From the NCBI GenBank assembly GCA_046075565.1, contig JBJTQJ010000057.1, positions 1-16,237 of the forward strand: a DNA stretch of 16,237 nt. The letters run 5' to 3'. Each line of letters begins with the position of its first letter. Position 1 is the first letter of the stretch. A program made the translations under genes and the position numbers. The stretch is from Verrucomicrobiales bacterium (GTDB taxonomy: Bacteria; Verrucomicrobiota; Verrucomicrobiia; Verrucomicrobiales; SLCJ01). This document shows, one piece after another, positions 2,170 through 15,200 of the stretch. Below the pieces are notes generated by a model. That model was not told the origin of the DNA, made no database searches, and was given only the letters and a program-made list of their open reading frames with translations.

Positions 2170-2367
2170 TAGCCCTTTCCCACCCCTCTTTGGGTCCTCC
2201 GATTTGCTTCCTCAACCACAACGACGCGAGCACCACCCCCCTCGATTGCAGGAAAAACCGCGCGCTCCTGTTTTGGCGGAGATTGTGAAAAACCTTGAAA
2301 GCGGATTCGCCCACAACCGCGTAGAGAACCCCACTGCCAAGCCGCCGGACGGAAGCAATCGAAAGCA

Positions 2368-4965
2368 ATGAAAACCATTCCCTTGACGAGCTTCCTCGTT
2401 CTTTGTCTTGCGGCCCGACCAGCCATTGCCGACTCACTATCCACATCTCGGAATCCATCGGACCCGCCAGCCGTTTATCAGGATCAGAACCTAACTGGCA
2501 TTGATTTTCCCATCGGGGCGGTCGGCGGCAGTGTGATTCGGATGAATGGCAAAGCCGAGCGCAGGTGGTGGCAGATCTTCCACAATTACGAGCAACGCCA
2601 GGGCAGCGGCGTGGTGCCGAACAGTTTCTTCGCCATACGCACGAAGTCCGGCGATGCCACCCGGGTGCGCGCGCTCCAGACCTCGGCGGTCGGGCCGTTT
2701 CCCGCAATGCAGAGCTTGACCTTCTCAGGTGAGTTTCCCTTTGGCTGGTATGCCTTTCAGGACAAGGAAATCCCCGTCAAGGTGACGCTGGAAGCCTACA
2801 ACCCGCTCATACCGATGGATCTGAAGAACTCGGCCATACCCTGCGCGATCTTCCGCATCAAGGTGAGCAACCCGACGGCCGCACCCATCGAAGTTGGCCT
2901 GCTCGCCACCCAGCAAAACGCGGTGGGCTTCTCCGGCTACGACACCATCGGCGGTGAAAACCAGCGGCAGAACCCGGACTACGGAAAAAACCGCAATGAG
3001 GTCACGGTTGGAAAAGAACGCACCGGCATCGCCCTCACCGGCCCCAAAGGCAGCATGCACCTTTCGGCCCACACCGAAGGCACCACGGCCACTGCCTCGT
3101 GGCAGGACATGGCATCGTTGTTCGCCGACTACGAGGCCGACGGCAAACTCACCGGACCCGCCATCGCCGAAAGCCCGGCACCACAAACCACCGTCGATGC
3201 CGCACTGGCCACGAATTTCCGCCTGGAACCCGGGGCCGAGCGCTTCGTCACTTTCGTGCTGAGCTGGCACTTTCCCGGTGGCACCTTCGGCCGCGCCGAC
3301 ATTCCGCAATGGTATTTCGTCGATGGCGGAAACCAATATGAAAACTGGTGGGCCAATGCTGCCGAGGTGGACGCGTATGTGGCCGAAAAGTTCGACTACC
3401 TCGACTCGACAACGCGTCTCTATCATCAGACCCTTTATTCATCCAAGATCCCGCGCTACGCGCTCGACCGGATGAGCGCGAATCTCAGCGTGCTGAAGTC
3501 CCCGACCAGTTTCTGGACCAAAGCCGGCTACTTCGGCATTTGGGAAAGCACCTCCGATAAACAAGAGTGGTTTGGCAACTGCAAACACGTGATCCACTAC
3601 GGCCAGGGGCACGCCCGCCTGTTTCCCGAACTCGGACGTCTCCTGCGCGATATCGATCTGCGCAGCCAGCTACCCGAAGGACTGCTCTCCGATCGCGACG
3701 GCGGAAAGAACGATGCCATCGACGGCCACTTCGGCACTATCCTCGGCGTCTATCGCGAGCACCTGCTCTCGACCAACACCGACTACCTCAAGACCGCCTG
3801 GCCGCGCACCCGCAAGGCCATGGATTACGCCATTGACCGACTCGATCGCGACCGCGACGGCATGCTTTCCGGCTCGTATCACAACACGCTCGACTGCAAT
3901 TCTTCCGGCACCTCGCCATGGATTGGATCCCTCTACATCGCCGCGCTCAAAGCCAGTGGCAACATGGCGGATCTCATGGGCGAAACCGAAGCGGCCAACG
4001 GATATCGCGAACTCGCCGCCACCGCCATCCGCAACCAGAACGAGCAACTCTGGAACAATCAACTAGGATACTACGTCGAACGCCCCGAAAACCTCCCGGG
4101 CACCCGCATTATGGGTGATGCCGTCGGCATCGACATGCTGCTCGGCCAATGGTGGGCCAATCAGCTCGGGCTCGGACAACTCTATCCGGCCGACCGCACC
4201 CGCGCGGGATTGGCGAAAATTTTCACCACCAACCGCATCACGGATCCAGGCAAAGGCTATCCACCACGATACCGCGATTTTCTCGGCACCGGCGATACCG
4301 GCTGGCAGATGTTCGTTCATCCCGGCCGCGTGCCCGATAACACCATCCACTATTTCTGCGAAGTCATGTCCGGCTTCGAATACGCCGCCGCTGCCACCAT
4401 GATCCAATACGGCCTGACCGCCGAAGGGATGGAAATGGTCAAGGAAATCTCGAAACGCTACGACGGCCGCCATCGCGGCAGAGGCGAAGTCACCCTCGCC
4501 TCGAATGCCACGGTCGATGGCAGCGGCAGCCCCTTCGGTGAGGACGAATGTGGAAAATACTACGCCCGCGCCATGAGCAGTTGGTCGGTCCTGCTCGCGC
4601 TCCAGGGATTCTCCTTCGACGGCCCGCAACAACGCATCGGCTTCCAACCGGTCTGGCAACCGGAGGACCACGCCTCGTTCTTCTCCGCAGCGAACGGCTG
4701 GGGCCTCTTCACCCAGAACCGCAGCGATGGAAAACAGGAGTCCGCCATCCACCTCAAGTTCGGCACCCTCGATCTAAAATCCATCACTCTCGGAATTCCG
4801 GAAGGCATGCGATCCGCCAATGCCCGCATAACCCTTGATGGCAAGGAACTGCCGCATAAGCCGCTAACCCACAAGGGAAGCACAATCGAAATCAATCTGG
4901 AGCAGCCGATCACCATCAAAGCCGGATCCTCACTTGCCCTCGAATTGCCTCTGGCTCCCATGTGA
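2368..4965 (+). CDS. Secreted GH116 family glycoside hydrolase (GBA2-like beta-glucosidase/xylosidase)
   Basis: 865 aa with a signal peptide. The N-terminal domain has GIDFPIGAVGG, FSGEFPF and AYNPLIPMDLKNSAIP. The (alpha/alpha)6 domain has HARLFPEL, DRDRDG, HNTLD, DMLLGQWWA and ECGKYYARAMSSW. Confidence 0.9.
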   Translation: MKTIPLTSFLVLCLAARPAIADSLSTSRNPSDPPAVYQDQNLTGIDFPIGAVGGSVIRMNGKAERRWWQIFHNYEQRQGSGVVPNSFFAIRTKSGDATRVRALQTSAVGPFPAMQSLTFSGEFPFGWYAFQDKEIPVKVTLEAYNPLIPMDLKNSAIPCAIFRIKVSNPTAAPIEVGLLATQQNAVGFSGYDTIGGENQRQNPDYGKNRNEVTVGKERTGIALTGPKGSMHLSAHTEGTTATASWQDMASLFADYEADGKLTGPAIAESPAPQTTVDAALATNFRLEPGAERFVTFVLSWHFPGGTFGRADIPQWYFVDGGNQYENWWANAAEVDAYVAEKFDYLDSTTRLYHQTLYSSKIPRYALDRMSANLSVLKSPTSFWTKAGYFGIWESTSDKQEWFGNCKHVIHYGQGHARLFPELGRLLRDIDLRSQLPEGLLSDRDGGKNDAIDGHFGTILGVYREHLLSTNTDYLKTAWPRTRKAMDYAIDRLDRDRDGMLSGSYHNTLDCNSSGTSPWIGSLYIAALKASGNMADLMGETEAANGYRELAATAIRNQNEQLWNNQLGYYVERPENLPGTRIMGDAVGIDMLLGQWWANQLGLGQLYPADRTRAGLAKIFTTNRITDPGKGYPPRYRDFLGTGDTGWQMFVHPGRVPDNTIHYFCEVMSGFEYAAAATMIQYGLTAEGMEMVKEISKRYDGRHRGRGEVTLASNATVDGSGSPFGEDECGKYYARAMSSWSVLLALQGFSFDGPQQRIGFQPVWQPEDHASFFSAANGWGLFTQNRSDGKQESAIHLKFGTLDLKSITLGIPEGMRSANARITLDGKELPHKPLTHKGSTIEINLEQPITIKAGSSLALELPLAPM

Positions 4966-7666
4966 GAGTGCCCCATTTTCCAGACATGCACGCCATGATT
5001 CACCGACCCGCCATCATCATCACCATCGGCTTGTGCTTTCAACTCGCGGTTGGCGCGGCGGAGGAAGTCAAGCCACCCGCTGCTCCAGCCAATGAACTCA
5101 CACCATCCTGGACGCTACCCGATCCTTCGCTTCTCCTCGGCAATCCTGCGCCCGGCTGGCCGGAGGTTCGTCCGGAGGCGCGACCAGGATCCTATTGGTG
5201 GTGGCCCGGCAGCGCGGTCACGCAGAAGGACCTAACTTGGAATCTTGAAACGTATGGGAAAGCAGGTTGGGGCAACATGGGGGTGATCGGCATCTACGGA
5301 GTGAAGGGCGAAGAGAAACGGAATATTCCGCTTTTCACTCCCGAATGGTTTGAGGTGTTCAATCACGCGGTCAAAGAGGCACGGCGGCTCGGCCTGAATA
5401 TCGATCTGACTCCATCCGGTGGTTGGCGGCTCGGTGGACCGCATGTCACGAAGAAGCATTCGGAGCGTTCCTTCGCGGTGAAGGACGGGAAAATTGATGT
5501 CGTGGTCCGGAGCGACAAGGTCAAACGCGCGGGTCTCGGTGGCGTCGGCATGTGCATCAATCCCTATTCGCCGACAGCGGTGAAATTCCATTTCGACTGG
5601 CTGGCCGATCGTTTCTCCAAAGGCCAAGGACTTTCCCCGCGGGCTTTCTACTACGACTCTTTCGAAAATCAGGGAAACTGGGCGCCCGAACTGCCGGACC
5701 GATTCAAGCAGTGGCGAGGCTACGACATTCAAGCACATGCCGAAGCGTTGGGCGGCACGGGCGATCCTGAAAAAGCCCGGCGGGTCCTCTGCGACTACCG
5801 GGAAACCCTCTCGGATCTTGTGTTGGAGTGCGTGAACCAAATCGTGCAATGGAGCGACAAACGCGGGAGTGGATTGCGCATGCAAGCCCATGGAGCGCCC
5901 GCCAACCTGCTCGACATGTATGCCGCAGCCAGCATCCCGGAGACCGAAGTTTTCGGCGCGAACAAATTTGAGATTCCCGGATTCCGCCGCGATCCACTTT
6001 CCTCACTCGACCAGCCTCATAGCGAGATGGTGAACCGGTTCGCCTCATCGGCCGCCCATGTGGCCGGTCGCAGCCTCGTGATCTCGGAAAGCTTCACCTG
6101 GTTGAGGAACCACTTCCACACCGCCTTATCCCACATCAAACCGGAGGCGGATCGCCTTCTCCTCTGCGGGGTCACTGGGATCTACTATCACGGCACCTGT
6201 TATTCACCGGAAAAAACCGAATGGCCGGGGTGGTTGTTCTATGCCTCCACCCAGGTGAACGCGCGCAACTCGATCTTCCGCGATATCCCGGCGCTCAATT
6301 CCTATCTAACCCGTTGCCAAAGTGTGCTCCAACAAGGGAAAGCGCACAACGACGTCCTGCTCTATTGGCCGGTTTACGACCTCTGGATGAGCGGCGGAAA
6401 AGGGGAAAAACGCTTCACAGTGCATGACTCGAGCTGGATTGAGGACCAACCCTGCGGCGAGGCGGGTCGCTGGTTGATGCAACAGGGTCATACCTTCGAC
6501 TTCGTCTCCGATGCCCAGGTCGGCGCCACCCGCTGGCAGGATGATCGTCTCGTCACGGCAGGCGGGGCCGCTTATCGGACGGTGCTGGTGCCGGCCGCCA
6601 AGGTCATGAGAGTCGAGACCGCGACCAAGCTGATCGAACTGGCCCGTGCCGGAGCATCGATTGTGATCTGGCGGCACTTGCCGGAAACCGTTCCCGGTTG
6701 GCATCAATTCGCCGAACGTGAAAAGGAACTGAAAAACTTCTGGGCGATCTGGCCTTCGTGGACGGCGTCGCCCCGGTCGGCAAAGGCCGCATTCTGCTGG
6801 GCGATGATCTCGCCGCCCTGATTGCCAAGACAGGCATCCCCCGCGAGGCGATGGTGGATCACGGACTCAAGTTCATCCGCCGAAAAGTGCCGGGTGAAGT
6901 GATTTATTTCATGGCGAACCAATCCGCCAAAGCGGTGGATGAATGGATACCCATCGCCTCCCCTATCCGATCCGCGTTGCTCATGGATCCGATGACCGGT
7001 GCCCTCGGCAAGGCAAACACGCGCATCGAAAACTCCATGACGGCCATCCGCCTGCAACTCCTACCCGGAGAATCGCGTATCCTGCGCGTTTTTGAAAATG
7101 AGGAGACCGATGCACCCATGTGGCCCATCACCACGCCATCGGGCGCTCCGCTGGAGGTGAAAGGACCATGGACGATCCGTTTCGTGGAAGGCGGTCCGGT
7201 CCTGCCGGCAGAGGCCAAGGTTGAGAAACTGGTATCATGGACGGAAACCGCCGATCCCGAGGCCCGGCGCTTCGCCGGAGCCGCCAGCTATTCCACTTCT
7301 TTTACCCTTCCCGAAAAAGCCGACAAGTGGGTGCTCGATTTGGGAGATGTGCGTGAAAGTGCGCGCGTGAGCGTGAATGGCAAATCGGCGGGAGTGCTTA
7401 TCGCCCATCCCTTCCGTCTGGATATCACTGGATTCCTCATAGATGGAGCGAACAGCATCGAGATCGAAGTGACCAACCTCTCCGCCAACCGCATCCGCGA
7501 TCTCGATCAACGCAAGGTCGGCTGGAAGAAGTTCGACGACATCAACATCGTGGACCACAAGTATAAAAAGTTCGACGCCACGGAATGGCCGACCGAACCC
7601 TCAGGTCTTCTCGGCCCAGTCACCCTAACGCCCATGACGGTGACTTTCCCCGCCGCGCATCCGTAA
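4962..7666 (+). pseudogene. GH106 (alpha-L-rhamnosidase-like) glycoside hydrolase, split by a -1 frameshift at ~6732-6736
   Basis: ORF 4962-6821 has the GH106 motifs RPGSYWWWPGSAV, IYGVKG, GWRLGGP, VKRAG, FYYDSFE, QAHGAP, IPETE and SESFTW. ORF 6758-7666 carries the expected C-terminal part (LDLGDVRESARVSVNG, IEIEVTNLSANRI, PSGLLGPV). Adding one A gives a continuous ...ELKKLLGDLAFVDGVAP... The true start may be ATG 4986 or 4995. The break may be a sequencing error. Confidence 0.85.
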
Positions 7667-7830
7667 ACAATCCTTGGCAAGGTCTACTCGACAGTCATCC
7701 TTTCTGTGCCTACCCGCGGTTTCTTTTCACTTCTTGTCCCGAACCTCTGGTTGGGGAGTCCCCACGATCTTTGCCAACGGCTTCAGCGCTGCCGCGTGCG
7801 CCCTCGGGCGGATTAAATCCGGGATCTCCC

Positions 7831-8160
7831 CTACCCCACCTTCCCGGCGAAGATGATCGCGACCACGGCCCCGCTGATGCCAAGGCTGGCGGCGAAGACG
7901 GCGATGGCAAAGATGACGGAAGAGCGTTTGTTGAGGAGCAGGATACGTTCTTCCTGGAGGGCGGCGACAGCGGCGAGTTCTTCGACGCGGGTGGCGAGAT
8001 CGCGGGTCAACTCGGCCTGACGGGTGGCCAATTCTTCAATGCGGGCGATTTCTTCGGCGGGTGGTCCGCTGGCGGCTTTGGCGGCGCGGGCGCTGCCGAC
8101 AAGCTGGGTGGCCACCTCGATCACGGAGGGCAGGGCCTTGAGCAAGGAGTCGAACTTCAT
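7831..8160 (-). CDS. Small hypothetical protein with a coiled coil and a C-terminal transmembrane helix
   Basis: 109 aa starting 30 bp after the nadK stop. It has a heptad-like middle (EEIARIEELATRQAELTRDLATRVEEL) and a hydrophobic C-terminal segment. Confidence 0.7.
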   Translation of the reverse strand: MKFDSLLKALPSVIEVATQLVGSARAAKAASGPPAEEIARIEELATRQAELTRDLATRVEELAAVAALQEERILLLNKRSSVIFAIAVFAASLGISGAVVAIIFAGKVG

Positions 8161-8190
8161 GGCGCAAGATGGCGCGGATTGAGGTCCGAA

Positions 8191-9063
8191 TCAAACATTG
8201 CTGCCGTGCCAGCGCAGTTTGGCACGCAGGGTTTCATAGAACGAACCGGCTCCGGGCACGACCAGCGGAAGACGCGAACCACTGCGGCGGATGACCAGGG
8301 TATCAGCTGCTTCGATGAGGCAGGCGGTTTCGCCATCGGCGGTGAGCATGACGGCGTCAGAGTCGTCGGCGGACCAAGCGCGCAACTCGATGGGTTCCGA
8401 GTCGCTCACCACGACCGAGCGGTTGCTCAGGGCGTGCGGGCAAATGGGCGTGACCACGAGCACGGCGGCGTCGGGCGCGACGACCGGTCCGCCCGCCGCC
8501 ATGGAATAGGCAGTCGAACCGGTGGGCGTGGCAACAATCAATCCATCGGCATGGTAGTGATTGAGCAATTGCCCGTGCACGCTGGCCTCGACATGGATCA
8601 TACGCGCGACCTTGCGGCGGGTGACGGTTAGTTCGTTAACCGCGAAGAACGTTTCCTCGTGGCCATTGGCACGCGTGATGACGGCTTCGATGAGGGAGCG
8701 CTCGGTGATGGCGTATTCGCGGTCGCGGAGGGCCCGGGCGATTTCCCCCGGTTCGGTGGCGGAAGAAAAGGAAAGGAAGCCGAGGCGTCCGGAATTGACC
8801 CCCATGACCGGACGCATGACGGGGGCCATGCGGTGGACGGCGCGCAGCATGCTGCCATCGCCGCCGACAACGATGACCAATCGCGCCCACTCGGCGAGGG
8901 CACGGAGGTCGTCGGTTTCCCCGGCGGGCAAACCGGCCACGCGGGCGGTCTCGGCGTCGAGGCGGACCTCGCGACCGTCACCTTGCAGGGCCGAAAGAAG
9001 GCCGGCAAGATAACCGGGCGCGGGCGGCCGGAGCGGGTTGGTGGTCAGGGCGATACGATCCAT
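8191..9063 (-). CDS. nadK: NAD(+) kinase
   Basis: 290 aa with VVGGDGSML, GVNSGRLGFL, the NE motif, DGLIVATPTGSTAYSMAAGGP, TPICPHAL and the C-terminal LRAKLRW. Confidence 0.96.
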   Translation of the reverse strand: MDRIALTTNPLRPPAPGYLAGLLSALQGDGREVRLDAETARVAGLPAGETDDLRALAEWARLVIVVGGDGSMLRAVHRMAPVMRPVMGVNSGRLGFLSFSSATEPGEIARALRDREYAITERSLIEAVITRANGHEETFFAVNELTVTRRKVARMIHVEASVHGQLLNHYHADGLIVATPTGSTAYSMAAGGPVVAPDAAVLVVTPICPHALSNRSVVVSDSEPIELRAWSADDSDAVMLTADGETACLIEAADTLVIRRSGSRLPLVVPGAGSFYETLRAKLRWHGSNV

Positions 9064-9132
9064 GCTAGAATTTCGTGGTTACCGTCGCTTCCAGTGATAG
9101 GCGAATCCACCACTCCCCGCCAGTCTTTTCCT
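9057..9132 (-). repeat. Duplicated (displaced) 3' end of tlyA; direct repeat copy 1, att-like
   Basis: 66/76 nt identical to 13346-13421. Read through to TGA at 9045-9047, it encodes GKDWRGVVDSPITGSDGNHEILAWIVSP*, overlapping the nadK ATG. Confidence 0.93.
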
Positions 9133-9187
9133 CGGGCAGAGGCAAATTTGGGAAAATGGAGATTTGAGCATCGGAAACGGGACCGCC

Positions 9188-10177
9188 TCAGGGCGTGGTT
9201 CTTCTTGGGGCGGACACGTTGGGATCCGAAAAATCAGTGATGATCGCGAAATGGTCACAGCCAATCGTCACATCGGTGAAGTCGGTTGTCTTTTCGGGCT
9301 CTAGGGCCACATCGCCTCTCTTCAGCCCGGAGGCCTTCAAATCAGCTTGAGGCATGACGAGCGTGTTGAAAATGAAGCTTCCTTCTTTTCTCAGCACACT
9401 GGAGTTGACGAGCGTGAAGTCGATGCGGTTTTTCCCGATGCTCGACCACTTCCCCTTCGCATCAAGCTCCACATTCCCGATGGTCTTGTCCTGTCCGGTT
9501 GCTCCGGGATGTGAGGGGCGCATGTCGATGAAGCCTTTTTTGCCGACAAGAGTCGCGTATGCGCTTTGCGTTTCGTTCTGGTTGAAATCGCCGCAAATCA
9601 TGATGGATGCATCGGATGGAATGCCTGCGGCGTGCTTGCCGGCCCTGACTTCGTTGAGGAAATCAACGGCGGCTGCGATCTGTTTGTCGATCTGGGTCCT
9701 GTAATGCACGTTGATCACCACCAGATCCTTGGTGCTGACAGAAGGCGGCAGATCGATCCATGATGCATGCACCCGACGATGGAGCTCCTTGTTCCAGCGT
9801 ATCGGATATCGAGTCAGGAGATAACGCCCTGTCTTATCCCACGAATAAATCCAGTCATTTTTCCCTGTGACCATTTCCACGCGATTCCTAAAGGCTTCGC
9901 CCTGGGCCTCGGGAGCCGGCGCGTCTCCATAAAATGTTTCCTGTAAAACCCAAACACCCGCATTGATCGCTTTCAGCATTCTCGCCCAACTGTCGGCCCG
10001 GCTCCGGCCTTCCAGAATCCTGGTTTGCATCACGTTGTAACTGGCGACCCGCAGGGTGGATGAAGCGGGACGATACAGTCCTTCTGCGGCAATCAATGGC
10101 TCACCAAACGACAGGCCACTGGCAACCAAAAAAAGGAAATTACAAGCAAACCGACTTGAAGTAAGGTTGTCTTTCAT
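9188..10177 (-). CDS. Secreted endonuclease/exonuclease/phosphatase (EEP) family protein
   Basis: Motifs LRVASYNV, VLQE, VINVH, ICGDFN, RIDF and CDH appear in canonical order after a signal-peptide-like N-terminus. ATG 10177 is preferred over TTG 10186. Confidence 0.88.
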   Translation of the reverse strand: MKDNLTSSRFACNFLFLVASGLSFGEPLIAAEGLYRPASSTLRVASYNVMQTRILEGRSRADSWARMLKAINAGVWVLQETFYGDAPAPEAQGEAFRNRVEMVTGKNDWIYSWDKTGRYLLTRYPIRWNKELHRRVHASWIDLPPSVSTKDLVVINVHYRTQIDKQIAAAVDFLNEVRAGKHAAGIPSDASIMICGDFNQNETQSAYATLVGKKGFIDMRPSHPGATGQDKTIGNVELDAKGKWSSIGKNRIDFTLVNSSVLRKEGSFIFNTLVMPQADLKASGLKRGDVALEPEKTTDFTDVTIGCDHFAIITDFSDPNVSAPRRTTP

Positions 10178-10472
10178 TCGAATCAAGGAAAAAGGCGTTG
10201 GTCAGAAAAACGAAGCGACTTGCCATGGCGTGGGATGCATGATGAGTGCCCGGTTTTTTCAAGCTAAGGCCATCCCTATCAGGTTCAAGAACTTCCTTGG
10301 ATCCGATGGTGACGCACGGTCCGGCCTGCGACACCCCTCGCAAGGTCCGGAGCCTCGGTGGCGAGGCCGTGCCATGCGGAGATGCGGCCTCCCAGGCTGG
10401 TGAGAGCATGGGTTGCGCCTTACCGGGTAAAGCAATTTTCCCGGTAACATGATCCGCGCCAGCGCAGGAGCC

Positions 10473-11009
10473 TTACTGAGCAGCGGGTTTTCCGGGAGCA
10501 GGCTCGAGCTTCTCGGTCTCTTCTTTGGTAACTTTTTTCAACTGTGTGATGACATCTACGGGAGTGCTAAAGCGATTCTTCGTCACATAGTTGTGCTGCC
10601 AGTCAAGCATGCCATAATCGCCGGGCTTAAGCGCCTTCACCGCCTTCTCGTTTTCTGGGGAAATTTTAAGGTTACCCATATTGTCACGCACCAGAAAATC
10701 ATATCTCTTTGTCTTGTCCTGGCCGTATTCATCCAGTTTTTCGTAGGCCACATACTTTACAATTTCAAAGTTGGCCATGTTGCCGGAAGCGCCGCATCGG
10801 TCCGGACACAAACCCGTCGCGCCCATGCAGCGGTGCTCGGCTATTCCCTTGAATAAGGCGACGGTACGATGTTTGGCGAGCACTTCGGTCTTGTCTCCGT
10901 CCTGCCCATCGGCGGCGACGGCGTTCAACGCCAGGCCGGCATTGAACCAAAAGCTAAGGATGGTGGTGAACAGAGCGGACGGGAGCCAGCGCAGTTGTGT
11001 TTTCATCAT
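10473..11009 (-). CDS. Secreted hypothetical protein with a C-x6-CPDRCG motif
   Basis: Part of ORF 10473-11081. The likely start is ATG 11009 or 11006 (MMKTQLRW...AVAAD signal peptide). The mature part is a soluble domain containing HRCMGATGLCPDRCG. Confidence 0.8.
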   Translation of the reverse strand: MMKTQLRWLPSALFTTILSFWFNAGLALNAVAADGQDGDKTEVLAKHRTVALFKGIAEHRCMGATGLCPDRCGASGNMANFEIVKYVAYEKLDEYGQDKTKRYDFLVRDNMGNLKISPENEKAVKALKPGDYGMLDWQHNYVTKNRFSTPVDVITQLKKVTKEETEKLEPAPGKPAAQ

Positions 11010-11045
11010 GGTTTCTGGTTGTCGATTTGAGTTTTTGGCCGGCAA

Positions 11046-11063
11046 ATTGGAATTAATTCCAAT
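11046..11063. promoter_or_regulatory. Perfect 18-bp palindrome, candidate operator
   Basis: ATTGGAATT|AATTCCAAT lies 36 bp upstream of the probable start at 11009. Confidence 0.5.
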
Positions 11064-11203
11064 CCGGTAACGGTATGACACATGGCCGCCTGATTAATTA
11101 GAAACTTTTTTCCGCTTTGCCGAGTTCTACGGGCACGAAGGGAATTAGTGCTGAGAAATTGCTTTCCGAAAGGAACAAGTGAAACACCGTTTCGAAAGTC
11201 CCG

Positions 11204-11236
11204 GCCTGCCAGGCGTAGCTTTAGTAGCGAAGACAG
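11204..11236 (+). repeat. Diverged copy of the 33-34 bp mini-element found inside the REP units
   Basis: GCCTGCCAGGC-GTAGC-TTTAGTA-GCGAAG-ACAG compared with GCTTGCCCGCC-ATAGC-CTCCG-GCGAAG-GCTGG (2126-2157). Confidence 0.55.
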
Positions 11237-11284
11237 AAGGCCGAAAAAAGGGCGGTGATGTGTTCCCGAAGGAGGATGCGCGGG

Positions 11285-13201
11285 CTAATCTTTCAGGGCC
11301 TCTATGTGCTGCGGCAGGTATTCCACCATGCGATTCACATAGTCGGCGACGGGGTCTTTCATCTTCAGCCCCGCAGCACGGATCGCCGGCAACGCGGGCT
11401 TGGCCTGCGAGCCAAACCGGTCAAGCACATTCAACGCGGCGAGTCGGACAAGCGGTGCATCGTGCTCCAGCGCCTTTTTCAGCACCGGCAGCGCGGTGGC
11501 ATGGTCGCCGAGATTGCCGATGGCTTCGGCAGCGGCGATGCCAACGCAAGGAGACTCAGCGCTCAGCGCCTTCCGCAGCGCGGACTCGGCGGGCTTTGCG
11601 TCCTTGCCGAGAGCGACGAGACCGAGAGCGCCCCACCAGCGCAGCGCGGCGTCTTTGTTGGCCAACAATTCCGTGAGGCGCTCCGTGTTGGCGGGCTTCA
11701 TTTCGTTGGCGAGAGCGGCAGCTTCGAGCAACGCGTCGAGCGGGTTCTTCTTCGGGTCGGCGGCGATCTCCCAAGGCGTGCTGCCAGTTGAGCGCAAGAG
11801 CATCTCGTGCTCGGGGAGCAGACCGAGGTCGCCTGTCGCTTTCATCCATCGCACGCACTCGGTGCGCAGACGTTCCAGCGTCTCGCGATGCTTTGGGTCT
11901 GTGGCGAGATTTTTCACTTGGTTCGGGTCGGCTTCGTTGTCGTAGAGCTCCTCGCCTGGTTTCGCCGGCGAGAAGTAACGCGCTGAGGTGCCGGTGAGTT
12001 TTCCCTCGCTGGCGAGCTGACGCCACGCCTTCATCGTTGGCATTTCCTCGGTATAGCTCACGAACTGCGACCAGCTCAGATGCGGGATGAAGTTGCGGTG
12101 GTACTGATAGCGCCGATCGCGCACGACACGCACGATGTCTAACCTTTCGGCCATGCGATCCCGGATGGCGTGGATGTATTCGCGCGGTTTGCCGGCCTGT
12201 CCGCCGAGGAACGCCGTGCCTTGCAGGTGTGGCAGGACTTTCACATCGCAGAGGCTCAACACCGTCGGAGCAAAGTCCACGAAGCTGACCATCCGGTCGG
12301 TGGTCTGGCCCGGCGAGGAGGGTGCGAGGTGCTGCCATTTTTTCGGGAAGCGGACCAGCAGCGGCACATGGATCCCACCTTCCCAAATCCATTTCTTCAT
12401 CCCCGGCAGACCCGTGCCGTTGTCGCCGAAGAAGAAGACGATGGTGTCCTCCGCGAGGCCGGCGTCCTCCAGTTCCTTGAGTTTGTCGGCGATCTGGTAG
12501 TCCATCGCCGTGATGTTGTCGTAATAGCGCGCCCAATCTCGCCGCACCTCCGGCGTGTCGGGATGAAATGGCGGCACCGGCGTTTTAGCGGGGTCGCGGC
12601 GTTGCGCGGGCGTGAGGCGGGCGGTGTTTTGTTGATACTTCGACTCCGGCACGCGGATCTGGCTTTCGTGACAGACCTCGTAGTTGAAAACGGCAAAGAA
12701 CGGCTGGTCCGGCTTGCGGTTGCGCCAGTGGCCTTTGGGACCGTTCTCATCCCACGCGCTCTTCGGCACCGCGAAGTTGTAGTCGGTTTTGGCATTGTTG
12801 GTGCAGTAGTAGCCCGCCTCGCGCAGGTATTCGCTGAAACACTTCACCGCCTTCGGCAGCGTCGTGGTCGAACGCATCCCTTGGCTGCCGAGCCGCGTCG
12901 GGAACACCCCGGTGATCAAGCAGGAACGGTTCGGCGCGCAGACGCCGCTGATGCCGAACGCGTGCGTGTAACGCACCGCCTGCGTGGCGAACCGGTCGAG
13001 GTTCGGCGTGACGGCATATATGTCGCCGTAGCAGCCGAGATTCGGGCAGATGTCCTCTGCGGTGAGCCAGAGGATGTTGGGGCGCGCGGGGGGCGCGGGG
13101 GACGCTGTCGTCTGGGCGTTTGCGAAACTCGCCACCAGCAACAGCGCGAGCAGTCCCCGAGTCGCGATAGCACCGCCCCGGGATTGTTGGGTCTTCTTCA
13201 T
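11285..13201 (-). CDS. Secreted formylglycine-dependent (S1) sulfatase with C-terminal HEAT-like repeats
   Basis: 638 aa with a signal peptide. Motifs include RPNILWLTAED, the CxPxR signature VCAPNRSCLITG, KTDYN, FGDNG, VPLLVRFP and EELYD. The C-terminus has LRWWGALGL / AAAEAIGNLG / VRLAALNVL HEAT-type repeats. Confidence 0.93.
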   Translation of the reverse strand: MKKTQQSRGGAIATRGLLALLLVASFANAQTTASPAPPARPNILWLTAEDICPNLGCYGDIYAVTPNLDRFATQAVRYTHAFGISGVCAPNRSCLITGVFPTRLGSQGMRSTTTLPKAVKCFSEYLREAGYYCTNNAKTDYNFAVPKSAWDENGPKGHWRNRKPDQPFFAVFNYEVCHESQIRVPESKYQQNTARLTPAQRRDPAKTPVPPFHPDTPEVRRDWARYYDNITAMDYQIADKLKELEDAGLAEDTIVFFFGDNGTGLPGMKKWIWEGGIHVPLLVRFPKKWQHLAPSSPGQTTDRMVSFVDFAPTVLSLCDVKVLPHLQGTAFLGGQAGKPREYIHAIRDRMAERLDIVRVVRDRRYQYHRNFIPHLSWSQFVSYTEEMPTMKAWRQLASEGKLTGTSARYFSPAKPGEELYDNEADPNQVKNLATDPKHRETLERLRTECVRWMKATGDLGLLPEHEMLLRSTGSTPWEIAADPKKNPLDALLEAAALANEMKPANTERLTELLANKDAALRWWGALGLVALGKDAKPAESALRKALSAESPCVGIAAAEAIGNLGDHATALPVLKKALEHDAPLVRLAALNVLDRFGSQAKPALPAIRAAGLKMKDPVADYVNRMVEYLPQHIEALKD

Positions 13202-13336
13202 GAGTCCGATTGGTAGGGATGAGGCTGATTGCTCATGTTTGGAAGGGTGGAGCTTCGCGCGTGCTTTCGCGAGAAAAAATAGGCCCTTAAGGGCATATAC
13301 GCACCTATAGGGTCTATAAATCAGAAGCTGGTCCCA

Positions 13337-14065
13337 CTATGCAGTGATCCATGCGAGATACTCGTGATTGCCATCGCTTCCAGTGATGGGTGAATCCACC
13401 ACTCCGCGCCAGTCTTTTCCTTGGTCGAGGGCGAATTCACGGATTTTTTCCACGGCGGCGAGCCGGGCTGCCTCGTCGCGGACAATGCCGCCTTTTCCGA
13501 CCTCCTCGCGTCCACACTCGAACTGCGGTTTGATCAAACAGACGACATTTCCGCCGGGACGAAGGATGCTGAAAACAGCGGGTAGGACCATGGTGAGGGA
13601 AATGAACGACAAATCCATGACGGCGAGATCGACCGGTTCACCCACATCGCCGGGGGTCAGCTGCCGGGCGTTGAAGCGCTCCTTGGCGATGACCCGCGGA
13701 TCGTTGCGGATTTTCCAGACGAGTTGATTGGTGCCGACATCAAAGCAGTAGACTTTCGCTGCCCCACGCTGGACCAGGCAGTCGGTGAAACCTCCGGTGG
13801 AGGCCCCGATGTCGGCACAGACCATGCCGGAGACATCGAGCGCGAAGGCGTCGAGGGCGCCTTCGAGTTTGAATCCGCCGCGGCTAACATATTTCGGTTT
13901 GGCAGCGACTTCGAGAACATCCTCCTGCTTCACCGCGCGACTGGCCTTATCGGCGGGGTGGCCGTTCACTCGCACCTCCCCGGCGAGGATGAGACGGCGG
14001 GCCTGCTCGCGGGAATCGCAGAGACCCCGCGCGACAAGCGCGACATCGAGTCGGTCATTCGCCAT
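13337..14065 (-). CDS. tlyA: TlyA family rRNA (cytidine-2'-O)-methyltransferase / hemolysin A
   Basis: S4 domain (RLDVALVARGL..SREQA) followed by YVSRGGFKL, DIGASTGGFTDCL, DLSFISL, LIKPQFE and SPITGSDGNHEYL. The start is probably ATG 14065, overlapping the LOG stop (the ORF track gives 14092). Confidence 0.96.
   Translation of the reverse strand: MANDRLDVALVARGLCDSREQARRLILAGEVRVNGHPADKASRAVKQEDVLEVAAKPKYVSRGGFKLEGALDAFALDVSGMVCADIGASTGGFTDCLVQRGAAKVYCFDVGTNQLVWKIRNDPRVIAKERFNARQLTPGDVGEPVDLAVMDLSFISLTMVLPAVFSILRPGGNVVCLIKPQFECGREEVGKGGIVRDEAARLAAVEKIREFALDQGKDWRGVVDSPITGSDGNHEYLAWITA
13346..13421 (-). repeat. Direct repeat copy 2 (current 3' end of tlyA)
   Basis: Aligns without gaps to 9057-9132. 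The longest perfect stretch is CGCCAGTCTTTTCCT (13407-13421 = 9118-9132). Confidence 0.93.
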
Positions 14066-15200
14066 TGGAGGCTCCGTTGGTCTCCGCGCCAAGGCGGTTG
14101 ATCGTATCGATCAACTGGCGCAATCGTCCGAAGTTTTTCCGTTTCGCCGAATAGACAAGGCGGGGCAGCAATTCGATGTCGGGTTCGTCGGCTTCGACGG
14201 GCAGGGCATCGCGTTGCACGAATTGACCTTTGGCGAGAAGATCGTGAAAGTCATGGTTCAAACTTTCCACCGCTTCCGGTGGCAAGGCGCGGTTGAGGCG
14301 AATGACGAGTTCGCTCCCGACCTGGCGGTACGAGTGGAAGACGCTGAAGAAACGTTCGATCTCGGCGATGGCATCCTCGACGGAATCGGTGATATGGAAA
14401 AGATTGAAGTCTTCCGGCGAGATGAGGCCGAGGCGGAGGAAATGCTCGCGCAGGAAACGATCGAAGGTTTTCCAATAGGTGCCGCCGGGGGCATCGATCA
14501 TGACAATCGGCTGCACGACACTCTTGCCGGTCTGGATGAGCGTGAGCAATTCGAATCCCTCGTCCATGGTGCCGAAGCCGCCGGGGAAAAGAGCGAAGGC
14601 GTGGGCTTCCTTGACGAAGGCGAGCTTGCGCGTGAAGAAATAGTTGAACTCGATCAACTTCGGATCGCCGTGGATGGTCTCGTTGGCGGATTGTTCGAAG
14701 GGCAGCGCGATATTGAGACCGAAGCTGTTGTCGCGGCCCGCGCCCTTCTGGGCCGCGCCCATGATGCCGTCCCCTGCCCCGGTAATGACCATGTATCCTT
14801 CCTCGACCATACGTTTGGCGAAATGCACGGCAGCCTGGTATTCCGGGCGGTCGGTGGTGGTGCGGGCCGAGCCATAACAAACGACCTTACGGGTCTGGCG
14901 GTAGGGATGGAATACCCGGTTGGCGCGGCGCATTTCCTTGAGCGCGCGGGTGATGAGTTTGAGGTCGGCGGCCCCGGTGTTGTCGCGCCCGGTTTTGATC
15001 GCGGTGATGATCATTTCCGCAACGAGTCCGACGGAAGATTCGGCACAGCCGGCCTCGCGCGCGATTTCAACGATGCGGGCATCGAGGGCTTCGTCTCCGG
15101 TCGTGCCGCGGATCCGCGACGGGAGCATGTGGATGCCACCTCCTGTGAAGTCCTTGTCATCAAGACGGGGGCGGCGGCGAGGGATGGATTTTTCACTCAT
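14055..15200 (-). CDS. LOG family protein (nucleotide 5'-monophosphate phosphoribohydrolase, long form)
   Basis: 381 aa with YGSAR, ITGAGDGIMGAA, GLNIALPFEQ, YFFTRKLAF and the LOG signature PGGFGTMDE, plus N- and C-terminal extensions. Confidence 0.92.
   Translation of the reverse strand: MSEKSIPRRRPRLDDKDFTGGGIHMLPSRIRGTTGDEALDARIVEIAREAGCAESSVGLVAEMIITAIKTGRDNTGAADLKLITRALKEMRRANRVFHPYRQTRKVVCYGSARTTTDRPEYQAAVHFAKRMVEEGYMVITGAGDGIMGAAQKGAGRDNSFGLNIALPFEQSANETIHGDPKLIEFNYFFTRKLAFVKEAHAFALFPGGFGTMDEGFELLTLIQTGKSVVQPIVMIDAPGGTYWKTFDRFLREHFLRLGLISPEDFNLFHITDSVEDAIAEIERFFSVFHSYRQVGSELVIRLNRALPPEAVESLNHDFHDLLAKGQFVQRDALPVEADEPDIELLPRLVYSAKRKNFGRLRQLIDTINRLGAETNGASNGE

Follow-up and report, generated by a model that had tools for sequence, protein, structure and literature searches.

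A foreign islet flanked by a duplicated tlyA 3' end between tlyA and nadK of a Verrucomicrobiales bacterium looks like a one-off recombination scar

The window, a stretch of 16,237 nt from a Verrucomicrobiales bacterium, was analysed as a whole, and all features described here lie on its minus strand. The tlyA gene, which encodes an rRNA 2'-O-methyltransferase, is intact (13337..14065, 242 aa; Pfam FtsJ 5.7e-44 plus S4), and its product ends in EYLAWITA before the stop codon. The protein belongs to the TlyA family according to NCBIfam TIGR00478 (252 bits, cut-off 185.8); the Pfam S4 and FtsJ domains span residues 14-248 of the 251-aa tlyA frame, and an identical protein is already on record (P0124). 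Upstream of tlyA lies its conserved neighbour, a LOG/'lysine decarboxylase'-family gene (14055..15200; Pfam PF03641, 8.4e-27), which occupies the same place in 8 of 29 relatives' loci. The nadK gene for NAD kinase is also intact (8191..9063; Pfam NAD_kinase_C 4.2e-31), and its ATG is located inside an orphan copy of the tlyA tail.

The tlyA and nadK genes of the window are ordinary members of a conserved pair, which is adjacent elsewhere, whereas in the window it is split by 4.3 kb. In 13 of 29 order relatives and at 58 of 80 metagenome loci, nadK begins within 150 nt of where tlyA stops, and the two genes overlap in all three same-family genomes and in the nearest metagenome locus. The window nadK is 50-56% identical to the nadK of those family relatives in which it overlaps the tlyA end. 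These counts bear out the adjacency that a first-pass annotation of this DNA had proposed as common, and the arrangement is ancestral. One other split of the pair was observed, at locus L016, where a single 312-aa gene lies between tlyA and nadK without tail duplication. When metagenome contigs were searched with tlyA, the best match was 71% identical, and neither close kin nor a DNA-level empty site was obtained from this search.

A repeat search revealed a direct repeat with two copies of 92 nt, at 9057-9148 and 13346-13437, which are 83% identical and spaced by 4289 nt. The repeat is the 3' end of tlyA in duplicate. The attached copy (13346..13437) contains the tlyA codons for EFALDQGKDW through EYLAWI and is followed, outside the repeat, by the new terminal codons Thr-Ala-stop (13337..13345), an ending absent from relatives. 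The orphan tail (9045..9148) reads from KFASARGKDW to EILAWIVSP and stop, has no tlyA body upstream, and includes the nadK start codon, which it overlaps. A scripted count gave 16 mismatches across the 92 nt. Ten of them fall within the 76 nt at 13346-13421, namely eight synonymous third-position changes and two changes within one codon (TAT versus ATT), exactly as first recorded; the other six lie within the 5' 16 nt and alter three residues (L/S, D/A, and Q/R). The similarity of the copies ends at 9148/13437. The tail match is not a chance resemblance, because the orphan was the sole second match of the C-terminus when tlyA was searched against its own genome (E 8.2e-12, 79%, residues 218-250). 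The longest identical run between the copies is 15 nt, AGGAAAAGACTGGCG, in which the first-pass annotation had placed a crossover. There is no evidence for such a crossover, and the run does not clearly stand out, because two further perfect runs of 14 nt occur in the same repeat; the runs of 15, 14, and 14 nt form the pattern given by a conserved coding stretch with third-position changes.

The nadK-proximal copy is the ancestral tail, as had been proposed earlier, because the genes overlap in every same-family genome and IVS or IVSP is found in 10 of the 12 proteins that share a 90% cluster with the window tlyA. Seven of the 12 carry IVSP (one of them reading past it), three IVS, one IASP, and one IAG; the ITA ending was absent from all 12, from 13 proteins at a greater distance, and from the loci of 29 relatives. 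The read-through protein, P0135, continues beyond IVSP into nadK-like sequence, beginning CPPTRSARP, which matches the frame of the window orphan, continuing after its stop codon as PPTRSGRP. The orphan is decaying, as it has Ile at a site where all of 29 loci and all of 25 proteins have Tyr or Phe. Phe is present in both window copies at a position occupied by His in all 12 cluster relatives, and both copies share GKDW, VVDSP, and TGSDGNHE in the same order.

The DNA between the copies begins, on the tlyA side, with an intergenic spacer from the tlyA stop to the sulfatase start (13202..13336, 50% GC), whose predicted fold was no better than those of shuffled sequences (z -1.82). The first cargo gene encodes a sulfatase with C-terminal HEAT repeats (11285..13201; Pfam Sulfatase 1.1e-37 plus HEAT_2). 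Its nearest counterparts, at 82-87% amino acid identity and 82.7-85.7% nucleotide identity (the latter for window 13148-11313 only), belong to genomes with just 50-55% identity in tlyA, and its best match among 40 order relatives is 48% in amino acids. The sulfatase was acquired horizontally, because its identities are discordant with those of tlyA. Five genomes carry the near sulfatase without the other two cargo genes. The second cargo gene (10473..11009, GC 51%) encodes a small protein that has an N-terminal hydrophobic stretch and is of unknown function; no match to it was found in Pfam, NCBIfam, or PHROG. Atlas clusters of hypothetical proteins matched it with scores of 0.95-0.96, its family is rich in Verrucomicrobiota, and a 44% paralogue lies on contig C31, with a 44% homologue in one family relative. 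The third gene encodes an endonuclease/exonuclease/phosphatase (EEP) hydrolase with an N-terminal hydrophobic stretch (9188..10186; Pfam PF03372, 4.8e-06; GC 53%); a homologue was present in only 1 of 40 relatives, at 33% identity, and no close relative was found in species-representative genomes. The spacer from the EEP stop to the orphan start (9149..9187) holds the non-homologous junction, where the similarity between the copies stops at 9148/9149.

In GC content, the EEP gene and the second cargo gene rank at the 1.3 percentile of the genome (the lowest ~1%). In tetranucleotide distance, both halves of the islet are near the 96th percentile, and the flanks are at the 31st-34th. The earlier view of the 4.2 kb between the copies as an insertion of foreign genes is upheld by the discordant identities of sulfatase and tlyA together with the atypical composition; this DNA is both foreign and mosaic. 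Rfam gave no match at E<=1 in 8000-14500, and the matches of promoter and terminator scans were no commoner than in shuffled sequences.

The absence of a recombinase from the islet, which had also been remarked upon, was borne out by Pfam on the genes, by 12 further ORFs at E<=0.05, and by PHROGs, none of which revealed a recombinase or a remnant of one. Moreover, no excisionase or transfer gene was found with Pfam or PHROGs, and a repeat search detected no terminal inverted repeats bounding the islet. A transposon or insertion sequence was rejected as a candidate, since there is no transposase, the edges carry no inverted repeats, and the duplication is 92 nt long. The islet is single-copy in the genome. 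A genome-wide search for other orphaned gene tails reduced 53 ungapped pairs to 4 candidates, and the three besides tlyA (C82, C124) proved on inspection to be non-coding repeats, so no other gene-tail orphan was found in this genome.

The reading that we tentatively favour is a one-off insertion by host recombination or repair, with displacement of the 3' end as in homology-facilitated illegitimate recombination (HFIR) and with no recombinase encoded by an element. Ancestrally, the two genes overlapped, with the nadK ATG inside the last tlyA codons. DNA of a close relative, in which a tlyA end was followed by cargo, may have paired at one end with the tlyA of the recipient, while the other end (9148/9149) would have been joined without homology. 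The ~4.2 kb of mosaic DNA (the sulfatase, the unknown secreted protein, and the EEP hydrolase) was inserted within the last ~30 tlyA codons. The second tail copy at the left edge of the insert keeps tlyA whole, with the new end ITA, and the old tail, IVSP, was pushed 4.3 kb downstream to become a non-coding orphan. This orphan, otherwise decaying, would persist because the nadK start and its upstream region are still part of it. Both the route of the recombination and the origin of the attached tail are inferred.

In HFIR, as described in PMC3240628 and PMC5361080, foreign genes enter beside a stretch homologous to the recipient and the other end is joined without homology, no recombinase of an element being required. 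The far edge of such an insert usually shares microhomology of a few bases with its donor. The window insert likewise has one tlyA-homologous edge and no element recombinase. The foreign nature of the DNA expected under HFIR was found here, with a sulfatase at 83-86% nucleotide identity against 50-55% for tlyA, at most 48% amino acid identity for it in order relatives, and atypical composition of the other two genes. A homologous anchor edge and a displaced native end downstream were likewise found, as the attached tail at the left edge and the IVSP orphan 4289 nt downstream. However, HFIR is defined by experiment, and in the window case the donor, the anchor crossover, and the microhomology are unobserved. 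No donor arrangement, with an ITA-ended tlyA leading straight into the sulfatase and no orphan, was encountered, as 0 of 24 sulfatase loci had tlyA within 6 kb and 0 of the 12 closest tlyA proteins ended in ITA; the kin donor is thus unobserved, because none of these 12 proteins has the ITA end.

A similar outcome is described for Rhs and T6SS effector-immunity arrays, in which, according to PMC5361080, the old 3' end is moved downstream by the arrival of a module that brings a gene end of its own, and an orphan fragment is left. In those arrays, the new end changes the function of a toxin, and orphans accumulate under diversifying selection. In the window, by contrast, the gene encodes a housekeeping methyltransferase, the new end is functionally equivalent, and there is one orphan, kept because it holds the start of the next gene. 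The case shows an insertion between two overlapping genes, one of them probably essential, in which neither was broken: the shared segment was duplicated, each gene has one copy, and the surplus decays. It also documents the transfer of a sulfatase gene between distant Verrucomicrobiota.

An in-place duplication was considered possible, if unlikely. Foreign DNA without tlyA homology would have been ligated where the tlyA/nadK overlap had suffered a staggered break or an error of replication, and the 92 nt between the joints would have been copied on both sides. Under this unlikely route, the copies would first have been identical, after which the attached copy drifted synonymously and the orphan decayed neutrally, and ITA with its stop would be the first in-frame stop of the captured DNA. 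Such a capture would be a single event in one lineage and needs no unobserved donor. The Phe and the GKDW, VVDSP, and TGSDGNHE motifs shared by the two copies are consistent with it; however, the shared Phe fits an imported kin tail equally and may be ancestral, being common in more distant relatives. In a simulation of the excess of synonymous differences, in-place duplication was not rejected over the full 92 nt (P 0.08-0.10), whereas P was about 0.02 for the conserved 76-nt block. The synonymous bias is thus weakly above what drift of a live copy and neutral decay of an orphan would give, and is too weak to prove an imported tail.

A co-occurring allele in sequencing run X1 bears on the same question. 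The window differs from this allele at 4 sites, and three synonymous inter-copy differences arose since the split from it. When the 4 sites were left out, the 12 inter-copy differences comprised 6 third-position and 6 other changes, a ratio that is compatible with plain neutral decay and thus with in-place duplication. However, the X1 allele shares the ITA end with its stop and 5 nt more, which amounts to 14 nt past the repeat, before it diverges from the window at 13332/13331, so that an in-place duplication would need a second event just past the joint. Such a departure is as expected at a natural gene end, and it was counted toward an imported tail. The 30-letter loose end of the allele was not found in the genome of the window with <=3 mismatches. 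A target duplication of 92 nt far exceeds those known from repair or transposition, which also argues against in-place duplication. Tandem duplication followed by trimming was rejected, since it would leave or require a second cargo copy and the islet is single-copy.

The first-pass annotation had instead read the locus as a reduced or trans-mobilised site-specific element or a cargo-swapping hotspot. On the former reading, which resembles a CIME and which we consider improbable, the tails would be attL and attR, and the integrase would have been lost or would act from elsewhere in the genome. A CIME is described in PMC5704250 as an element whose genes for integration and transfer are gone and that keeps attL and attR. 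The architecture fits integration into a 3' end with an element-borne replacement tail: 92-nt direct repeats that include the target gene end flank the insert at both edges, the gene is restored by the edge copy, and no integrase lies inside. Moreover, the non-synonymous differences lie 5' of the 15-nt run and the synonymous ones on its 3' side, a distribution that would follow if protein coding were required of the 3' part of the site alone, and four tyrosine-recombinase matches were found on other contigs of the genome. However, recombinase, excisionase, transfer gene, and remnant are all absent from the islet, its cargo is mosaic, combining ordinary genes for secreted enzymes from different origins, the repeats are only 83% alike and have no clearly distinct identical core, and there is no trace of ICE or IME descent. 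Nor did the arrangement recur: a second tail copy was seen at 0 of 111 other tlyA loci (1 of 112 with the window's own), a recombinase family in 0 of 75 downstream ORFs at 25 loci, and no other copy in the genome. The filled alleles that had been anticipated, with other cargo between duplicated tails or with an integrase at the tlyA end, were thus absent from the 111 and 25 loci, respectively. No joint of a circle or an empty site (~9148 to ~13437) occurred in the Logan contigs of 4 runs from one study with partial coverage, a result of little weight as contigs drop rare forms, and a literature search for tlyA with attB and a genomic island gave nothing relevant, as judged by title. The claim of a mobile element or hotspot was not sustained, and a duplicated gene end flanking foreign genes is insufficient, as a caution, to call a mobile element.

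It is very improbable that co-occurring freshwater Verrucomicrobiota exchange cassettes without an integrase at the tlyA end, with cargo swapped between fixed tail repeats by a recombinase elsewhere in the genome. In run X1, two alleles seem to have the ITA end and the nadK-side junction in common, but the stretch between these points differs or does not align. If true, such cassette exchange would make a housekeeping gene the site of a CIME- or integron-like hotspot; otherwise, the locus opens no new question.

That two strains were fused in assembly at the repeated tail is hardly credible and largely refuted: the genome assembly is in 129 contigs and two alleles ~5% apart co-occur in run X1, but a k-mer assembler would not be misled by exact inter-copy matches of at most 15 nt, a chimera is not expected to put an orphan tail precisely at the start of nadK, and both junctions are bridged by independent Logan contigs. 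The nadK/orphan/EEP region is spanned in two runs, by X1 record 1 (8700-10166) and X2 record 9 (9008-9764), and one X1 contig spans the sulfatase start, the intergenic spacer, and the tlyA tail (13198-13421). Because independent contigs bridge its junctions, the islet between tlyA and nadK is not an assembly artefact. Run X1 also contains a joint from 10166 to 12273 (depth 5.4, side 30), located exactly at unitig ends; a deletion was rejected as its explanation, and the joint was taken instead to reflect another path that the second allele follows through the assembly graph.

The window comprised one entire contig of 16,237 nt from a source genome of 129 contigs. On its minus strand, a LOG-family gene was the first of a series and was followed by tlyA (13337-14065), a HEAT-repeat sulfatase gene (11285-13201), a small gene without an assigned function (10473-11009), an EEP-family hydrolase gene (9188-10186) and nadK (8191-9063). 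A repeat search of the window returned one direct repeat of 92 nt (9057-9148 and 13346-13437; 83% identity, spacing 4289 nt), in which 16 of the 92 nt were counted as mismatches by script. The upstream copy was the genuine tlyA end, with a protein ending in EYLAWITA and a stop. The downstream copy, referred to as the orphan, had no tlyA body, ended in EILAWIVSP and a stop, and contained the nadK ATG; with tlyA as the query, it was a significant second match in the source genome (E 8.2e-12). The first-pass annotation had described the tlyA end as present twice, with 10 mismatches in a 76-nt block, namely eight synonymous third-position changes and one codon (TAT/ATT), and the script count agreed with this tally. 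The repeat and the islet of DNA inserted between its copies are real.

Forty genomes of the same family and order were sampled, and 29 yielded tlyA loci. nadK started at most 150 nt from the tlyA end in 13 of the 29 loci; no nadK was present within 1.5 kb in 14, one had it at 1185 nt, and one locus was too short. In all three same-family genomes, tlyA and nadK overlapped by a few bases. Among 80 metagenome loci, nadK was adjacent in 58, at 154 nt in one and absent in nine, with 12 loci too short. A protein search, which recovered kin missed by the DNA scans, assigned the window TlyA to a 13-member cluster at 90% identity. Of the 12 other members, seven carried IVSP, and the rest ended in IVS (three), IASP (one) and IAG (one); none ended in ITA. 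In one of the seven IVSP proteins, P0135, the stop was lost and the frame continued as CPPTRSARPLSL; at that read-through position, the orphan frame of the window reads a stop followed by PPTRSGRPRP, which is the nadK 5' region in the tlyA frame. Thus, the IVS(P)-type tails of the kin and the P0135 read-through, whose frame matches that of the orphan, point to an empty site in close relatives, with tlyA joined to nadK, and identify the orphan as the ancestral tail. The earlier proposal that the nadK-proximal copy is the native one was therefore upheld. Moreover, Tyr or Phe occupied the Ile site of the orphan in 29/29 relatives' loci and 25/25 proteins, and an Ile at a position otherwise Tyr or Phe throughout indicates that the orphan is free of tlyA constraint.

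In P0135, the tlyA frame gains 12 residues from the nadK 5' region, and this read-through shows that the tail tolerates lengthening after AWI. In one order relative (locus L016), a lone gene for a 312-aa protein (2331-3269) lay between tlyA and nadK, and the tail was not duplicated. The protein had a hydrophobic N-terminus, a C-terminal end resembling a PEP-CTERM sorting signal by eye, and no Pfam match.

The inserted DNA is foreign and mosaic. The sulfatase matched proteins at 82-87% amino-acid identity in five Verrucomicrobia-labelled genomes and at 72-77% in further genomes labelled Lentisphaerae or Planctomycetes. Identity at the DNA level (82.7-85.7%) was limited to 13148-11313 of the window, and the flanks were without similarity. 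The TlyA proteins of the five genomes were only 50-55% identical to that of the window. Among the 40 order relatives, TlyA was 50-76% identical (at least 57% in 39), and the best sulfatase reached no more than 48%. The sulfatase and TlyA identities were discordant, which demonstrates that the sulfatase gene was transferred horizontally. None of tlyA, nadK, the EEP gene and the small gene lay within 6 kb in 24/24 sulfatase loci (L135-L158), and the EEP and small genes were absent from all five near-sulfatase genomes. The EEP gene had one homologue (33%) among the 40 relatives, and no close relative of its protein was found among species-representative genomes. For the small gene, homologues at 44% occurred in one relative and, within the source genome, on contig C31; its protein resembled clusters of hypothetical Verrucomicrobiota proteins. 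GC content was 59.6% for the genome and 63% for the sulfatase gene, whereas the segment 9149-11284 had 53.5%, which placed it at the 1.3 percentile among 1-kb windows. Both islet halves lay at about the 96th percentile of tetranucleotide distance, and the flanks at the 31st-34th. Together with the ancestral adjacency, this foreign, mosaic cargo bore out the earlier claim that foreign DNA was inserted between tlyA and nadK.

Homologues of the sulfatase-HEAT gene (L135-L158) were always found in other gene contexts, and from its matches the gene looks widely exchanged across Verrucomicrobia-, Lentisphaerae- and Planctomycetes-labelled genomes. The GC content of nadK was 66%, above 99.7% of the 1-kb windows of the genome; despite this high value, the gene looks native both in tetranucleotide profile and in how closely it matches nadK of family relatives. 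A 348-aa frame opposite nadK (7585-8631, plus strand) had no family match and is probably not a gene.

Since tlyA and nadK overlap, both genes stay intact only if an insertion duplicates the common segment. This need explains the architecture, whatever the route. The route tentatively favoured, at somewhat less than an even chance, is 3'-end displacement by homology-facilitated illegitimate recombination. Incoming DNA from close kin would carry a tlyA end and then the cargo; the kin tlyA end would pair with the resident tlyA, and the far edge would be joined without homology at 9148/9149. However, the kin donor was not observed. This process and orphaned 3' ends are known from T6SS and Rhs loci (PMC5361080; PMC3240628). 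Displacement at those loci leaves orphaned 3' ends, to which the orphan tlyA tail can be likened. The structure represents a recombination scar, well preserved and of a type already known, in an unusual location. Duplicative capture in place, for which the overlap segment would likewise have to be duplicated, is a possible but rather unlikely route.

A decayed or trans-mobilised site-specific element is doubtful. Such an element would resemble a CIME, defined in PMC5704250 as lacking integration and transfer genes but having attL/attR. Four tyrosine-recombinase matches were present on other contigs of the genome, and action in trans is possible, but none of the four was tied to the tlyA site. 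No recombinase, transposase or phage family was found in the three islet genes or by PHROGs, nor in 12 further ORFs, gaps included, at E<=0.05, and the repeat search gave no inverted repeats at the islet edges. When the last 40 residues of each locus were used as the query, a second tail copy was found in 1/112 tlyA loci, the window's own. In 25 loci that lacked an adjacent nadK and extended 900 nt or more 3' of tlyA, recombinase families matched none of the 75 downstream ORFs of at least 150 aa, all of which were ordinary genes. A literature search returned nothing relevant, judging by title, on tlyA as an attB or genomic-island site. With no recombinase, no recurrence in other loci and a single copy of the islet in the source genome, the suggested integrative element or hotspot at the tlyA end was not sustained.

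A genome-wide search for a gene tail with an orphan reduced 53 ungapped repeat pairs to four candidates, including that of the window; the other three (contigs C82 and C124) were rejected as non-coding repeats. Those on C82 formed a short non-coding family (52198-52309, 57988-58099 and 86138-86197). On C124, a repeat (12087-12133 and 12880-12926) lay where a gene ends whose product, by eye, looks like a REP-associated transposase, with a tyrosine recombinase match nearby (9086-9598).

An assembly chimera is very unlikely as the source of the structure because Logan contigs, assembled from public sequencing runs, bridged both the nadK/orphan/EEP joint (two runs) and the sulfatase/spacer/tlyA-tail joint (one run), and the longest identical run shared by the tail copies was 15 bases.

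The source of the attached tail was considered by simulating divergence from two identical copies, one limited to synonymous changes and the other free to take any change. Under this model, the low observed number of differences at first and second codon positions had P 0.08-0.10 for the full 92 nt and P ~0.02 for the 76-nt block, a hint, short of proof, that the copies had diverged beforehand. In the freshwater run X1, one of four runs, a second attached-tail allele (depth 7.8) was found beside a window-like allele (depth 10). It differed from the window at 13367, 13370, 13373 and 13388, with the orphan letters at the first three. When these four sites were excluded, the other 12 differences comprised six third-position and six other changes, a split compatible with an orphan that has decayed neutrally. 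Phe stood in both tail copies of the window, whereas His was found in 12/12 cluster relatives; as Phe is frequent in more distant relatives, the common Phe may simply be ancestral.

Paired X1 contigs about 5% apart also covered 12419-12627 (10 differences) and 12889-13088 (12 differences), with depths near 7 and 8-9, and paired contigs also lay at 13332-13420. An alternative path ran from 10166 to 12273 at depth 5.4, and 8700-10166 was a single contig at depth 16.3, about the summed depth of the alleles. From these X1 contig depths alone, X1 being one of four runs that all belong to one study, we read two related populations, both with the nadK-side junction. The second allele agreed with the window through the tlyA stop and 5 nt and then diverged, its sequence just 3' of the stop being unrelated to the window spacer.
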